Source: a plasmid. Taken from it: a DNA stretch of 64,000 nt. The stretch is taken from assembly GCF_054482525.1 (NCBI RefSeq), contig NZ_JBTHVG010000007.1; one strand, 5' to 3'. The translations under genes were made by a program, and so were the position numbers. The notes under the pieces were generated by a model, which was not told the origin of the DNA, ran no database searches, and worked only from the letters and a program-made list of their open reading frames with translations. Of this stretch, positions 1 to 7,201 are shown piece after piece; position 1 is the stretch's first letter; the number at the start of each line of letters is the position of its first letter.

Positions 1-164
1 GTCGGTGTTTCCCCTTCCGTTTTCCGTTTCAGTGTCAGTACCGGTCGTTTCTGCTCTGTCATGATTGCCCTGACCTTTGTGAAAATATGTCCTCCAGGTC
101 GTTGAAACTACTCACTATGATATTAAGCTGACCTCAACGACCTCTGACATATTAATACCGACAA

Positions 165-1025
165 TTAAAGATGTTTTTTAAACCATTGCGTCTGTACTGC
201 CGCCACACGTTCAAAAAACGCGCCTTTATAAATATCATAATGGCATGCGTCAGCTTCCTCGTATAATTCCTTAGTACCAGAAGCAACAGCATCATATAAG
301 GCTCTTCCCTGTTCTGGTGGATTAACACTATCCTGGCCGGCAATAACAACCAAAACTGGGCACTGTACTTTGGCTGCGCTCTCTGCCGGTTTATATTGCA
401 ACGTCTCCATAACCGTAAGGAAAGGTATTTTTATATCCATTTCAGGATACTGACCTTTTACCTTCTCGAAGAATACCTTTGATTCATTATCACTCAGTAC
501 CCGGGTAACCCCCACAAACATCTCTTTCCCGGTATTTTTCTTCTTTTCTGCCATTTTATTCAGCGTGGACAGAAAAGAAGCTTTCTCCAGTTCATTCATT
601 TCTCCGGTAACCAGAACCTCACCGTCAGCAAAAGCCAGCTGGCTGACAATACATTTTACGCGTTGGTCCTGCGCAGCTGCACTGAAGACATGCCCCCCTC
701 CCAGCGATGTTCCCCATAACCCAATACGCTGATTATCAATACATACCTGCTTTTCTGCCCAATTGATAACTGAAATAATATCTTCGGTCTGCATTGCCGG
801 AACCAGACGACCTCGTTCCCCTTCACTCTCACCGAATCCACGATAATCAAAAGTAATCGTTGCAAACCCGGCTTCTGTAAACGCATTCGCAAAGGAAGGC
901 AGCAGAACATTCCGGATACCGCAAAATCCATGGCATAAGAGAATCAAAGGATGTTTTATATTTCCTTCCGGGACACGAAATGTCAGGGCAATACCTTCAG
1001 GGAGTTTGTGATCCGTAATTTTCAT
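165..1025 (-). CDS. alpha/beta-fold serine hydrolase (dienelactone-hydrolase-like)
   Basis: 286-aa ORF with G-x-S-x-G nucleophile elbow (GTSLGGG) and downstream Asp/His candidates (AGQDS, CHYD); lies immediately after traX. Confidence 0.7.
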   Translation of the reverse strand: MKITDHKLPEGIALTFRVPEGNIKHPLILLCHGFCGIRNVLLPSFANAFTEAGFATITFDYRGFGESEGERGRLVPAMQTEDIISVINWAEKQVCIDNQRIGLWGTSLGGGHVFSAAAQDQRVKCIVSQLAFADGEVLVTGEMNELEKASFLSTLNKMAEKKKNTGKEMFVGVTRVLSDNESKVFFEKVKGQYPEMDIKIPFLTVMETLQYKPAESAAKVQCPVLVVIAGQDSVNPPEQGRALYDAVASGTKELYEEADACHYDIYKGAFFERVAAVQTQWFKKHL

Positions 1026-1083
1026 AAATATCCTGTGTTATGTTGTTTATTAATAAGCAGAATCAGCGCCAGCATCATACCAG

Positions 1084-1830
1084 TCACACAGCCAGAACGC
1101 CCAGCACAGTAAGATGACAGGCATAGAACGTCGGGAAAAAATCCCCGTACCAGAAACGGGGTAGTGATTTCCCTGTACAGGACACCAGACCAACAGTCAG
1201 CACCGTCATCACAAGGCCGGCCACCGCCGCTGCATCACTGGTGGCAAGGTTAAGCGCCGGAATAACAGCCAGCAGGCAGGCGACCAGCGCCAGACGTTCC
1301 ATTCTGTCTTCCGCCCGGTACAGCCTGTGGCTGACTGCCAGCATCAGCAGCCCGGCAATGCCGTAACTGGTGCCGGAGAAAGGCAACCACATTGCCAGAA
1401 GCAACATGGTCTCTGCGGAACGCCACCAGGTGCGCGTTTCACACCATGTCAGCACCTGTGCCGCAACTGCAAAGGCAAACAGGATATTCCCCTCATACCA
1501 GGGAAAGCCGGCCAGATAATATGCGAACTGGGCAATCACCGCCCATCCCCACAGCCGGTTAATGGCCTCCTGCCGGATATGCGTATGACGGGACAGATTC
1601 AGCCCCCACACCAGGGCAAACAGCGGAAAGGCCCCACGCCCGACCAGAAACATCCACGACTGGTCCAGATGCAGAATGCGGTTTGCATGGTCCAGAACCA
1701 TCAGCACCAGTGCCACCGTTTTGATGATATCCCGCTGTCCGGGTGACCAGACCAGCAACGACTGCAACCAGGTATCGGTCCGGGCAGCCAGTGAATCATT
1801 ACGTGTTGTGTTCGTGTTATCCGTTGTCAT
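1084..1830 (-). CDS. traX: TraX, F-pilin N-acetylase
   Basis: 248-aa polytopic membrane protein, same length and position as F TraX, directly after traI. Confidence 0.88.
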   Translation of the reverse strand: MTTDNTNTTRNDSLAARTDTWLQSLLVWSPGQRDIIKTVALVLMVLDHANRILHLDQSWMFLVGRGAFPLFALVWGLNLSRHTHIRQEAINRLWGWAVIAQFAYYLAGFPWYEGNILFAFAVAAQVLTWCETRTWWRSAETMLLLAMWLPFSGTSYGIAGLLMLAVSHRLYRAEDRMERLALVACLLAVIPALNLATSDAAAVAGLVMTVLTVGLVSCTGKSLPRFWYGDFFPTFYACHLTVLGVLAV

Positions 1831-1849: not shown

Positions 1850-4800
1850 TCAGTCTCCGCCCAGGGTTTTCTCTTTCTGCAGGTCACGAACCATATCCCG
1901 CTCCATCTGCTGCAGTCGCTCCTGCAGCAGATTTTCCCGGGCAACCTCCCGGACCGCTTCCCGCACCCGTTGTGGTTCACGCAGTACACTCTCCGGCAGC
2001 GCGGCTTCCCGTTCAGATATGGCAGACCGGTCACGCTCCAGCCCGGCAATATCCCTGACAGCCTGCTCTGTTTTGCCGTCCGGCAGGTCAGGTTTGTTCT
2101 CTGCCATTTTACGGACAATTTCATCCGCACGGCGTTCCGTTTCACGGCGGATGGCCTCTTCAGCCTGCCGCTGTGCCAGTACCTCTGCCGTGACCGGTTC
2201 GCCATTTCCGGCTCCCGGCTGAACGCTGTTGTCCGGGATATCCCCCCACACGCGACCACCGGTGATGGTTCTGGGATTCCACGGACGACCTTCACCGGCG
2301 ATTCTTACCACCACACCGCTGTCAGGATTATCACGGGCAATCCGGACACCATCCTGCATATTATCAGCCAGCAGGCTCTCTCCGTTACGGCTGCCCTGCA
2401 GGGCCACGAACTGCGCATCCCCGCTGCCTTTCACCCGGCCTTCACCACTGAAGCCCCGCAGCCCGTTTCCGTCATCCGTGGTCAGCGGGTTCAGCCAGAT
2501 ACCAGCTGACTTGCCGTTACGGTCAAAAGCCGGCAGTGCCACATACGGCTGCGGATATTTGCGCCCGGGTGCAATAAACCGTGCAGGACTGTCTCCCCCG
2601 GCCAGCCCTGCCTGACGGAGAACGGCACGGCCGGCCACCACGTCCCGCAGCTCCCGCGCCGTACTGAACAGCCGCTCTGCATTCATGACCTCCCGGTCCG
2701 ATTTCGGCTCTAGCACATCGTGGGCAGTTCCTTTCTGTACGGCATTGTTGATGGCATCCGTCCAGCCCTGACGGTTATCGGTGTACACCTGCACATGCTG
2801 CTTCATACGCGACAGGGCCACGTAGGCTGACTCAAAGCCGGCCATCAGTTTCCGGTTACCTTCCGTGCCTTCAAGCGCGATGGCAAAGGTTTCACTTGCC
2901 CCCTGCGCACCGTGGGCGGTGATGGCATAAGCCAGGTCAATATGTTGCTCTGCCCGCTCCTGACCTGGGCGAATCACCCGGATCTGCTGTCCGTCCGACA
3001 GCGTGACACTGTCACCGGAAACCGCTGTCACCGTCCAGACGCTGTTGGCCACATAACCTCGCTCCCGGTCACTCTTCGTGAAGCGCATCCGGTCACCGGT
3101 TCCCACCCGGATGGTGTCCGGGGTGTACAGTGTGACGCCTTCAGCCACCGCCTCCCGGGGCGAAATCAGCCGCGTGTTACCTTCCGCATCCTCCAGGGTT
3201 ATCAGCCCGTCATCCTTGCTGATACCGGCAATCCGGTGATACACACTATCCACCAGGGCAAGGGCATCCGGGTTATTCTCCCAGGTGGAGAGACGACGCA
3301 GTTCTCCGTCACGTATATTCGCTGTGTTCAGGACAGGCACCATGACCTGCTCTTTGCCCAGCTCACCGGCCTTTTCCCGTGCATCATGAATCATGCTGTT
3401 CAGTACGCGCCGGTCCTCATTCAGGTGTGTGACAATCAGCGTCTGCTCCCGTGCTTCCGGTGTCCTGCCGGTATAGTCGCGGACAATGGCTTCATACAGT
3501 GTCATGGGGATATCCGGGAAAGCCTCGCCTTTCAGCATCGCCTTCTGCTGCGCTTCTGCCAGTTTCGCTTCCTGGCTGTGACTGAACTCCGTCACGGAGT
3601 GCTCCGGTGCCCATGCGCCCTCCTGACGGGGAACCTGAGACGGTTTCACACTCTCAAGCCCGGACAGTGCCCTTTCCACATCCCGGTTAATCAGGCTGTA
3701 TACCGCCTCCCGCAGTTCCGGCGTCTGACGCACAATCTCCTTCATGATGACCACATCGGCAGCACTGCGCGTCTGCTGGAGACGGAAAGGCTGACCGGGC
3801 GCGATGGCCTGCAACTGGTCCGTGTCACCACTGGCCACGGCACGACCGCCACCGGCCGCAATCAGGGCGTATGCCCGTGCCATGTCGGTATTGCCCACCA
3901 TAGAGCTCTCATCGAGCAGGAACAGCGTGTTGCTGAAATTCGGCGTTTCTCCGCTGCGCTGCAGCAGCTGCGTGTCATGCAGAAAGGACGCCAGCGTCTG
4001 TGCATCCACGCCGGCGCTGCGCATCTCACCGACCGCACGGTGCGTGGGCCCCAGCCCCACGACACGGGGACGTTCACTCTCCGGCAGCATGTTCACGGCT
4101 GACATCACCGCCCGGAACTGTGTGGTCTTACCCACACCGGCATAGCCCTGCACCACCGTGAAACGGTCGGACGTTTCCAGTATCATGCGGGTAGCGGCAC
4201 GCTGTCCTGATGTCAGTTTCTCCATGAGTTCGCCAGGTACTCTCTCCATCAGTGGCGTGACCGCCTCCTTACCTTCGAGAATATGGCGAAGAATGCTCTT
4301 TTCTGCCTCATACGACGCACGGGAAACCAGCAGGCCTGTGCCATAGCCTTTTGCCACATCCACATACAGTAAATCACCGCGTTTTATCTGCGCATTGATT
4401 TCCCCTCCCAGTTCAGTAAAACTGGTTCCTTCTGCAGCAAACGACTTCGCCTCTGTCAGCAGGTCCACCATGCTGAAGGCCAGGTTTTTACTTTCCACCA
4501 CAGGAAGCGCCAGATGAATAGCCTGCTGTGCCGGCGTGTGAAGCCCGGTTTTCTGCAGACTGATAGCGGTTTCCAGCAATGTCTCACCGGCACGCGCCTT
4601 TATCTGCTCAGAAACCACCGTAAAGGAGGGATGGCGGGCAAGTTTTTCCGCAGTACGGGTTTCATCCAGTGAGGAATACAGCCGGACATCACGACCGCTG
4701 CGGGCCAGACCGTTCAGGGTGGCGTTGTCCATTGCCATCTGTGTGACGGAGGCAAAAACCTTCGCACTGTCGCTGACGGAATGCCCGGGCGTTTCCACCC

Positions 4801-7120
4801 AGCCGTTCTCCAGCTTCAGTGCCATGAATGGTGAATCGCTCACAGGCAGGGAGGCCGGTTCAGCCCGCCCCGGCACAACAACCGTCATCGCATCTTCACT
4901 GACGGATGCCACCTGCAGGCGGTCACCGCCGGAGACGCGGAGTCCGGGAATTTTCCCTGTCACCCTCAGTCGCTCGCCGTCTGCCACCGGCATTTTTTCC
5001 GGCCGGAACAGCGACCAGCTGCTGTCCAGGGAGGAAATACGCACCACCTGCGTTTCATCCTGCGCATCCCGCAGGGTCAGGCTGTTACTCTGCGCCGTCA
5101 CCCGGTCGATAACATAGCGGTCATGACTGCGTGTCTCCGGGTTCCACTGCTCCATCACCATCCCCGGACGGTACATATCCCGCAGATAACGGCTCCGGCT
5201 GTCCAGCCAGACCGGCGACAGGGCGGTCATGGTTACCTCCGGGCGTCCGAGCACGCCCTGTGTTTTCAGCTCACTGCGAATGGCCTGTGTCAGTATGGCC
5301 TGTTCCCGTACCCCGCTGACCTGTGCCACGCTCTCTTCTCCGGCTTTCACGCTGGCAGCAAAATCTCCTGCCAGCCGGGCATAGCGGACATTACGGTCCG
5401 GTTCACTGATGATGGTGGCCGGCCGCTGTTCTCCCCCCTGCCAGCGATATGTGTTCACCCCGGCATCTTTCATGGCCATCAGTGCACTGCCTGTACCGGT
5501 TCGCTGCCCGCTGTCGGTTATCAGGACCTGTACGTTATGACGTGCGGCACCGTCCAGCAGGGTTAACGTCTCTTTCAGGGAGAGTTTTTCGCCCTGGTCA
5601 ACGATAACAGTATTGCCCGGCGTGAAGGCCATGCCCTCCTGCAGCTGACGACGTCCGGTTATCAGCTCACCGGACAGCCGTTCATCCTGCTTCAGGTTCA
5701 TCTGCGAGCGACGGTCAGCGGCGATAATCTGCACCTCCCGCCCCTGCTCCCGGGCCATCATGACCAGCTCCGCCACCCGCTCACGCTGCCCGGCTGCACC
5801 GCCCTGCCCGGACACAATAGCCAGCGACGGGCGATCCTGTGCCAGAACACTGACCGCATCGCTGTAACCGGCCGTCCGGGGGACACTTTTCTCCGGATGT
5901 ACGGTCACCCGGTTCTGTTTCATGATGTCACGACTGAGTGCCCGGACTGACAGCTCATCGAGCACATGAATCCCGGACGTGAACAGCCCCTTCTCACGAT
6001 CGAGGGGGATAAGCTGCTCACGGCTGATGGCCTCATCGATACCGGCGCGTGCCCGTTCAATCACACCATTTTCCGGCGGCAGTATGCCGACCGTTCTGGC
6101 CAGCACGTCCGTGTACGTAAACTGCACTTTGCGTTCACTTAATCCGGCAATGGCCTGTGTCACCGCCTGCTGCACATCCGGCCCGTCCTGTGAAGCGGGT
6201 CCGGGCGTCTGCGTGCGGGTCTCCGCCCGTTGGTCCGCCGCGTCACGATACGCCCGGATGTCGAACCCGGTTTCCTTCAGCGTCTGCATCCATTCAGCCA
6301 TTCTGACTTCAGGATCGACGTGCTGTTTGGATTTTCGCGTATCCAGTGCCGCCACATCCCGGGATTTCAGCGAGGCGTCTTCCCCGACGGCCTCCCGGAT
6401 AGCCTGTGAGCGTCCGGAGAAGGCCTCCACCGGTACGCCCGGCATCTCCCACATACCGTGCTTACCAACCACTTCCGTTTCATAGCCTAGCGCCTCAACC
6501 TGCTCTTTCAGTTTTTCCCGGTAGAGCCTGCCGAAGGCAATCTGATTAGCGTACACATTCTCAATGAACCCCGTTTTCCCCACTTTGTCACTGCTCAATG
6601 TCTTCCACTCGCCGTTATGCTGCGTGACATTGGCCACTACCGCATGTGTGTGTAACTGTGGTTCCTGATCGCGACTGGTGTCGTGGTTAAACAGTGCCAT
6701 CACCAGATTACCGGTCAGCACCGTTTCTGACTGTCCGTCCGTCATAACCCGTGTGGAAGCCAGCGCCTCCACCTGACGGACAGCAAAATCCACGGCCTGG
6801 TTATGTGCATCAATAAGACGTTTATCACCGCCTAACATGGCCATCACGGAGACACTTTTGGGGGCGGAGAAGGTCAGGTCGTAGCCGGGACGATGCTTAT
6901 TACTGCCATCCTGCATGCGGCTTAAATCCGCTCCGTCCGGCAGCTTCCCCTCCAGAAGACGGGTAAAAACATCCTTATCGACGCTGCCCTGCAGCCCCAG
7001 CTGTTCAGCCCCCCTGCCGGCCCAGCGTTCTCCCATGCTGCCCAGCACATAGTAATTATCCTTGTCGGTATAATAGTTACCGGCACTTCCGGCCGATCTG
7101 ACCTGCGCGATACTCATCAT
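1850..7120 (-). CDS. traI: TraI relaxase/DNA helicase I
   Basis: 1756 aa from the internal start MMSIAQVRSAGSAGNYYTDKDNYY (F TraI N-terminus); Walker A GYAGVGKTT; the called ORF extends 7 codons upstream. Confidence 0.95.
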   Translation of the reverse strand: MMSIAQVRSAGSAGNYYTDKDNYYVLGSMGERWAGRGAEQLGLQGSVDKDVFTRLLEGKLPDGADLSRMQDGSNKHRPGYDLTFSAPKSVSVMAMLGGDKRLIDAHNQAVDFAVRQVEALASTRVMTDGQSETVLTGNLVMALFNHDTSRDQEPQLHTHAVVANVTQHNGEWKTLSSDKVGKTGFIENVYANQIAFGRLYREKLKEQVEALGYETEVVGKHGMWEMPGVPVEAFSGRSQAIREAVGEDASLKSRDVAALDTRKSKQHVDPEVRMAEWMQTLKETGFDIRAYRDAADQRAETRTQTPGPASQDGPDVQQAVTQAIAGLSERKVQFTYTDVLARTVGILPPENGVIERARAGIDEAISREQLIPLDREKGLFTSGIHVLDELSVRALSRDIMKQNRVTVHPEKSVPRTAGYSDAVSVLAQDRPSLAIVSGQGGAAGQRERVAELVMMAREQGREVQIIAADRRSQMNLKQDERLSGELITGRRQLQEGMAFTPGNTVIVDQGEKLSLKETLTLLDGAARHNVQVLITDSGQRTGTGSALMAMKDAGVNTYRWQGGEQRPATIISEPDRNVRYARLAGDFAASVKAGEESVAQVSGVREQAILTQAIRSELKTQGVLGRPEVTMTALSPVWLDSRSRYLRDMYRPGMVMEQWNPETRSHDRYVIDRVTAQSNSLTLRDAQDETQVVRISSLDSSWSLFRPEKMPVADGERLRVTGKIPGLRVSGGDRLQVASVSEDAMTVVVPGRAEPASLPVSDSPFMALKLENGWVETPGHSVSDSAKVFASVTQMAMDNATLNGLARSGRDVRLYSSLDETRTAEKLARHPSFTVVSEQIKARAGETLLETAISLQKTGLHTPAQQAIHLALPVVESKNLAFSMVDLLTEAKSFAAEGTSFTELGGEINAQIKRGDLLYVDVAKGYGTGLLVSRASYEAEKSILRHILEGKEAVTPLMERVPGELMEKLTSGQRAATRMILETSDRFTVVQGYAGVGKTTQFRAVMSAVNMLPESERPRVVGLGPTHRAVGEMRSAGVDAQTLASFLHDTQLLQRSGETPNFSNTLFLLDESSMVGNTDMARAYALIAAGGGRAVASGDTDQLQAIAPGQPFRLQQTRSAADVVIMKEIVRQTPELREAVYSLINRDVERALSGLESVKPSQVPRQEGAWAPEHSVTEFSHSQEAKLAEAQQKAMLKGEAFPDIPMTLYEAIVRDYTGRTPEAREQTLIVTHLNEDRRVLNSMIHDAREKAGELGKEQVMVPVLNTANIRDGELRRLSTWENNPDALALVDSVYHRIAGISKDDGLITLEDAEGNTRLISPREAVAEGVTLYTPDTIRVGTGDRMRFTKSDRERGYVANSVWTVTAVSGDSVTLSDGQQIRVIRPGQERAEQHIDLAYAITAHGAQGASETFAIALEGTEGNRKLMAGFESAYVALSRMKQHVQVYTDNRQGWTDAINNAVQKGTAHDVLEPKSDREVMNAERLFSTARELRDVVAGRAVLRQAGLAGGDSPARFIAPGRKYPQPYVALPAFDRNGKSAGIWLNPLTTDDGNGLRGFSGEGRVKGSGDAQFVALQGSRNGESLLADNMQDGVRIARDNPDSGVVVRIAGEGRPWNPRTITGGRVWGDIPDNSVQPGAGNGEPVTAEVLAQRQAEEAIRRETERRADEIVRKMAENKPDLPDGKTEQAVRDIAGLERDRSAISEREAALPESVLREPQRVREAVREVARENLLQERLQQMERDMVRDLQKEKTLGGD

Positions 7121-7201
7121 AAACGTATATCCCTTTGACATATCCCGGTATCAATCCCACAATGGATATACACAAGACATATCCACATAAGGAGGCAAAT
7201 A

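Follow-up and report, generated by a model that had tools for sequence, protein, structure and literature searches.

UilS was described in Serratia marcescens RM66262, where mutation of uilS abolishes the urea-induced loss of C10-AHL and complementation brings this loss back (PMC11633161). The Serratia gene also confers AHL loss when expressed in E. coli TOP10, and the AHLs of P. aeruginosa are removed too (PMC11633161). It is located on the chromosome, under the influence of LuxR, AHL, urea and CpxR (PMC11633161). The evidence is biosensor-based: acidification, HPLC and mass spectrometry are not mentioned, and the word 'purified' is used in the paper only for CpxR and for PCR products (PMC11633161). 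Hence, given the nature of the assays and that neither a purified enzyme nor an identified product is reported, the name 'lactonase' is chemically unproven for Serratia UilS. AidA, from Acinetobacter baumannii, is another quorum-quenching enzyme with an alpha/beta fold, and is 28% identical to Serratia UilS according to the authors' figure (PMC11633161). Regarding AHL-degrading enzymes in bacteria with a conjugative plasmid, BlcC of Agrobacterium degrades OOHL, tuning the transfer of pTi (PMC7690428).

On plasmids, R100 contains a 286-aa ORF (WP_000704523.1) between traX and finO. We take this ORF to be the one that publications on R6-5 and R100 call 'orf286' (Cram et al. 1991, Gene 104:85; van Biesen & Frost 1992, Mol Microbiol 6:771). 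The ORF found at the same place in the window (the whole stretch of 64,000 nucleotides that we analyzed) shows 96.2% amino-acid and 96.5% nucleotide identity to that of R100; the 58- and 102-nt spacers at its two sides are identical, and otherwise nothing of substance differs. The window gene is another allele of the R100 gene. RefSeq now annotates it on E. coli plasmids as uilS, the name that we use here, while in older PLSDB records the same gene is labelled 'alpha/beta hydrolase'. The presence of uilS between traX and finO was therefore already known: it is a common, named gene of R100-type F-like plasmids. The features of the region are collected in Table 1.

Table 1. Features at the distal end of the tra region in the window. 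Positions are those of the window; (-) is the minus strand.
Feature	Position	Strand	Remarks
finO 5' end	1..62	(-)	first 20 codons; gene cut by the left edge of the window
uilS-finO spacer	63..164	(-)	102 nt; long imperfect hairpin at 84..153
uilS	165..1025	(-)	286-aa ORF; R100-type 'orf286'; stop codon at 165-167
codon of His262	240-242	(-)	catalytic triad, uilS
codon of Asp232	330-332	(-)	catalytic triad, uilS
codon of Ser107	705-707	(-)	catalytic triad, uilS
Shine-Dalgarno AGGA	1031..1034	(-)	5 nt before the uilS ATG; read from the minus-strand letters
traX	1084..1830	(-)	F-pilin acetylase; 248 aa; NCBIfam PRK13706 529.7 bits; Pfam TraX E=3.9e-65
traI	1850..7141	(-)	relaxase/helicase; 1763-aa ORF; annotated TraI in matching plasmids

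uilS begins with an ATG located 58 nt past the traX stop codon, and is co-oriented with traX and traI. Its product gave Pfam matches to Abhydrolase_1 (E=2.4e-32) and Hydrolase_4 (E=2.7e-20), with the GTSLGG motif at residues 105-110. The first of these matches, together with an NCBIfam match at E=5e-152, hundreds of homologues and dN/dS values of 0.08-0.21, places the ORF far beyond chance. We thus confirmed that it is a true gene, and that a previous annotation made from the letters of this DNA (hereafter, the sequence-only reading) was right in calling it a serine hydrolase of 286 aa, with GTSLGG and in the orientation of the tra operon. The same reading took it for the last gene after traX, which it is not: an ATG at position 62 of the minus strand, 102 nt downstream of uilS, opens a frame whose translation matches the start of FinO in F, and which continues beyond the left edge of the window. 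The location of finO, one of the checks that had been suggested, can be seen in the E. coli plasmid p14EC020b (IncFIB/IncFIC, 166 kb), a 100% match over the first 1900 bases of the window, in which a complete finO of 561 bp, annotated FinO, comes directly after the hydrolase gene.

In an alignment of 25 homologues with identities of 63-98%, residues G105, T106, S107, G109, G110, D232 and H262 are invariant, and so is the H32-G33 pair, in our view the oxyanion-hole motif. From this alignment, an AlphaFold model was built (pLDDT 83.7, pTM 0.84). It places Ser107 between a strand (96-106) and a helix (108-119), and Asp232 and His262 after strands 224-229 and 252-257, respectively, in the canonical topology and with a helical cap over roughly residues 135-217. 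GxSxG, Asp and His are present in the order and topology that are canonical for an alpha/beta hydrolase. When the model was compared to the PDB using Foldseek, the top match was an alpha/beta hydrolase from Chloroflexus (7QJM, TM 0.85), followed by E. coli YcjY (5XB6), the thioesterase DcsB and various esterases and lipases. A sequence search of the PDB concurs with these matches, the nucleophile and acid residues being aligned. The fold assignment that the sequence-only reading had proposed as a check thus came out as an alpha/beta hydrolase. Neither a signal peptide nor a membrane segment was detected in the product (maximum Kyte-Doolittle value of 1.49 in a 19-residue window). According to the modelled fold, the triad and the lack of both signals, the product is predicted to be a soluble, cytoplasmic Ser-Asp-His hydrolase.

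This is the fold class of AidA, which is only a distant relative. BlcC-type enzymes are lactonases of the metallo-beta-lactamase fold. Unlike them, the uilS product lacks an HxHxDH motif and gave no match to Lactamase_B, which sets it apart from the AHL lactonases of the metallo-beta-lactamase (AiiA-like) type. Its likeness to the BlcC/Ti system would lie elsewhere, in the presence of an enzyme predicted to degrade AHLs in a bacterium with a conjugative plasmid.

Against the NCBIfam equivalog NF047920 ('UilS family quorum-quenching N-acyl-homoserine lactonase'), which has a curated cut-off of 400 bits, the product scored 505.5 bits, with residues 2-286 covering positions 1-285 of the 285 in the model. 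Judged by its sequence, it is a member of the UilS family. It is 64% identical to P0122, with 78% positives and no gaps over 286 aa; P0122 is the representative of a cluster of 194 members (90% identity), is attributed to S. marcescens and named UilS family by its source databases, and may differ from UilS of RM66262. The latter is also a protein of 286 aa with the same GxSxG, Asp and His residues, and the lack of a signal peptide in the window protein fits the cytoplasmic location that the UilS paper gives as predicted for lactonases (PMC11633161). In contrast to the chromosomal and regulated gene of Serratia, uilS in the window belongs to a plasmid, has traX and finO as neighbors and no regulator gene next to it, and is found in hosts that make no AHL. 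From this analogy, 'AHL lactonase' is a reasonable inference for the plasmid protein; at 64% identity to P0122, its substrate preference may differ. In the literature searched we found no report of AHL degradation by the IncF allele.

One could argue that the true substrate of UilS is something other than an AHL, and that the protein is a general carboxylesterase, thioesterase or lactone hydrolase. In that case, the AHL loss seen in Serratia would be secondary or indirect, and the plasmid gene would have a different use in detoxification or metabolism. We consider this explanation rather unlikely, but several observations speak for it. The closest structures are generic (7QJM, YcjY 5XB6, DcsB, feruloyl esterases and monoacylglycerol lipases), members of the family are variously labelled dienelactone hydrolase, esterase or S33 aminopeptidase, and the UilS paper does not include an assay with purified enzyme (PMC11633161). 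The chromosomal neighborhoods also fit it. In S. marcescens (loci L051-L053), uilS is directly downstream of NicX, MarR, 2Fe-2S ferredoxin and molybdopterin-dehydrogenase-cytochrome c genes and overlaps the end of a convergent LysR gene, and in Erwinia its neighbors are dehydrogenases, with no luxI or luxR within 5-6 kb. For S. marcescens and Erwinia billingiae we found no gene of the LuxR family within that distance, nor could one be seen in the S. inhibens locus; the synteny of uilS and luxR stated in the literature (PMC11633161) was not reproduced within 5-6 kb. On the other hand, AHL loss disappears when uilS is deleted, returns upon complementation and is gained by E. coli expressing the gene (PMC11633161), and the NCBI curators made NF047920 an equivalog.

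The order traX-uilS-finO is also found in pO157-type and other plasmids. In F, pSLT and CP039405, by contrast, finO begins 54 nt after traX and there is no trace of a hydrolase. traI, traX and finO are ordered and oriented in F and pSLT as they are in the window, but the uilS module of about 1 kb is lacking. According to these comparisons, the distal tra region has two standard layouts, traX-uilS-finO (R100-type) and traX-finO (F). The statement of the sequence-only reading that finO follows traX in classical F-like plasmids holds for F and pSLT and fails for the R100 type, where uilS stands between them. Likewise, the pairing of traX with the hydrolase, which that reading had asked to trace across IncF plasmids, is kept in the R100 and pO157 types and is missing in F, pSLT and CP039405. 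The boundaries of the insertion were set from gene coordinates, given that MAFFT, used to align the junctions of both types, put the 3' end of traX in the wrong place.

With a query spanning finO'-uilS-traX-traI', at least 2083 PLSDB records showed a coverage of at least 80% in one collinear place; the arrangement is that of R100 and is not unusual. Of the 5426 complete E. coli genomes searched, 1933 have uilS (about 36%; 2017 records), and 2048 of its 2055 places are on plasmids. traX is present in 3374 of the same genomes (3875 records). Comparing the numbers of records, uilS is found on roughly half of the E. coli replicons with traX. The sequence-only reading had also named two findings that would tell against it, a triad that is not conserved, or a gene confined to this one plasmid with finO directly adjacent. 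finO is indeed adjacent, but the triad is intact and the gene is found on many plasmids.

uilS does not behave as a member of the tra gene set: F, pSLT and CP039405 lack it, and its relatives on chromosomes are not surrounded by tra genes. The hydrolase is mentioned neither in the 'Five shades of F' paper nor in that on pKF3-70. The sequence-only reading had suggested that the hydrolase acts together with TraX on pilin or the envelope, for instance as a deacetylase or esterase linked to transfer. All that speaks for it is the adjacency of both genes and their shared orientation. Yet F, pSLT and about half of the E. coli replicons with traX have no uilS, and tra operons are complete on plasmids that lack it. 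Besides, its product has neither signal peptide nor membrane segment, in contrast to TraX, an integral membrane protein; the base composition of uilS does not match that of the tra region, and it has relatives in genomes and contexts devoid of tra genes. A role of this kind, for a predicted cytoplasmic product that is dispensable in F and pSLT and has relatives unlinked to tra, is highly improbable.

The same reading had offered the alternative of a hitchhiking cargo gene, and this one has stood up well. The GC content of uilS is 44.3%, with 36-41% in the flanking spacers, compared to 57.4% in traX and 59.7% in traI. A motif scan of one genome per species gave relatives that are 56-71% identical to the window protein, among other genera in Pantoea, Erwinia, Yersinia, Edwardsiella, Kosakonia, Enterobacter, Citrobacter, Serratia, Brenneria and Burkholderia. 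The homologues of Erwinia billingiae and S. marcescens are chromosomal and non-conjugative in context, being surrounded by dehydrogenase and regulator genes and not by tra genes. IncF alleles are closely related to each other, with 92-99% protein identity among the five compared, and the nearest outsiders are at about 70%. In these five plasmid alleles dN/dS was 0.08-0.21 for uilS, a sign of strong purifying selection, versus 0.17-0.34 for traX, and the triad is intact in all of them. One of the five, on a plasmid of E. coli 2014C-3057 (NZ_CP027386.1; locus L055), retains uilS and its 58-nt upstream spacer intact, with IS600, IS66 and integrase remnants in the place of traX and finO; here uilS outlived the surrounding transfer genes. 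The low GC content, the chromosomal relatives without tra, the dN/dS values, the triad and this last locus point to uilS as a functional cargo enzyme at the traX-finO junction, a foreign gene kept for its protein product.

The searches also gave copies in other settings. Fragments of IncF-type uilS (94-99% protein identity) were found on short contigs from assemblies that represent their species, labelled as a Clostridiales MAG (L018), a Collinsella MAG (L028), Terrisporobacter mayombei (L009) and Acinetobacter idrijaensis (L043), with traX alongside in the first two. In such unrelated taxa, they look like contamination or mis-binning of enterobacterial plasmid DNA. Some genomes (loci L024-L026 and L029-L030) have several UilS-family matches each. 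Enterobacter asburiae TN152 has three contigs with one match each, and scaffold2 of Klebsiella pneumoniae ATCC 13883 contains an IncF-type copy (97.6%) beside traX and a second copy with about 70% identity.

Regarding the expression of uilS and finO, simple scans gave no promoter-like or terminator-like site on the minus strand of either spacer. The 58-nt traX-uilS spacer is nearly identical across five plasmids, and the length of 102 nt of the uilS-finO spacer is kept in R100, pO157-type and other plasmids. Since both genes are on the same strand, with conserved spacers and no terminator between them, their co-transcription as part of the distal tra region is plausible. Within the 3' coding end of traX, about 60 nt ahead of its stop codon, a GC-rich stem and the T-run that comes after it (CCCCGTTTCTGGTACGGGG ATTTTTTCCC; positions 1143-1161 of the minus strand) resemble a terminator.

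The hairpin in the uilS-finO spacer folds as RNA at -31.7 kcal/mol (z = -3.2) and includes a perfect 10-nt inverted repeat (96-105/134-143). As no T-run follows, it does not qualify as an intrinsic terminator; the hairpin may serve the processing or the stability of the finO mRNA. The hairpin is identical in three of the five plasmid alleles. The pO157-type allele keeps most of the pairs through G-U wobbles and breaks one, and the allele of E. coli 2014C-3057 has an unrelated sequence at that position, which makes too few distinct alleles for covariation support.

van Biesen & Frost (1992) reportedly put the stronger repression by finO of the R6-5/R100 type down to higher levels of finO mRNA, linked to the upstream orf286. 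Co-transcription of uilS and finO would fit such an effect. One could then think that the main selected role of uilS is in cis, with the orf286 segment lengthening or stabilizing the finO transcript, which would strengthen FinOP inhibition, and with the enzyme being incidental. The position of uilS immediately upstream of finO, the fixed 102-nt spacer with its stable hairpin, the lack of a terminator between them and the reported link to finO mRNA are consistent with such a role. However, the low dN/dS and the intact triad indicate selection on the protein and not on the RNA alone; moreover, uilS is intact in E. coli 2014C-3057 despite the loss of traX and finO, and homologues occur without finO. 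We therefore see a mainly cis-acting role as improbable, although an effect in cis is compatible with an enzymatic one.

Taken as a whole, the reading that we favor, and hold to be somewhat more probable than all others together, is that uilS is a gene of chromosomal origin that encodes an AHL-hydrolyzing cargo enzyme in R100-type IncF plasmids, co-transcribed with finO and external to the conjugation machinery. uilS would have been acquired from an enterobacterial chromosome and become fixed in the traX-finO gap of these plasmids. By comparison with S. marcescens UilS, its product would hydrolyze the AHLs that diffuse into the cell, with Ser107 as the nucleophile, so that a host that produces no AHL (E. 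coli, Shigella, Klebsiella or Salmonella) would gain a plasmid-borne quorum-quenching activity. uilS would be transcribed with finO, and its sequence would thereby raise the level of finO mRNA, as reported for orf286.

What such an activity could be good for is a matter of speculation. E. coli, Salmonella and Klebsiella do not produce AHLs and sense foreign ones through the LuxR solo SdiA. AHL-SdiA signalling has been reported to lower the transfer of RP4 from E. coli to P. aeruginosa. Given that the hosts sense foreign AHLs and given this precedent, a plasmid enzyme that degrades AHLs could matter for SdiA eavesdropping. For the IncF plasmid pSLT, sdiA slightly lowers transfer and AHL has no effect. 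The presence of uilS on pSLT was considered as the reason for this insensitivity and ruled out, as pSLT does not carry the gene. There is no known activation of IncF transfer by AHLs. Against a benefit from AHL degradation, E. coli makes no AHL itself, and AHL levels in the gut are reported to be low. That R100-type IncF plasmids carry uilS in order to blind their hosts to foreign AHLs, clearing them before they reach SdiA, is a proposal that we regard as doubtful, and unlikely as things stand.

For the annotation of F-like plasmids, the correction is simple: traX-uilS-finO and traX-finO are both standard distal ends of their tra regions. The gene is carried by about 36% of the completely sequenced E. 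coli genomes, with the AHL role of the plasmid allele being a prediction from its Serratia relative. If the blinding of hosts to foreign AHLs were true, the plasmid would alter SdiA-dependent behavior and might relieve the repression that AHL-SdiA signalling exerts on conjugation towards AHL producers, and uilS would be a hidden variable in SdiA experiments that use F-like plasmids. About one third of the sequenced E. coli strains would then be plasmid-borne quorum quenchers.
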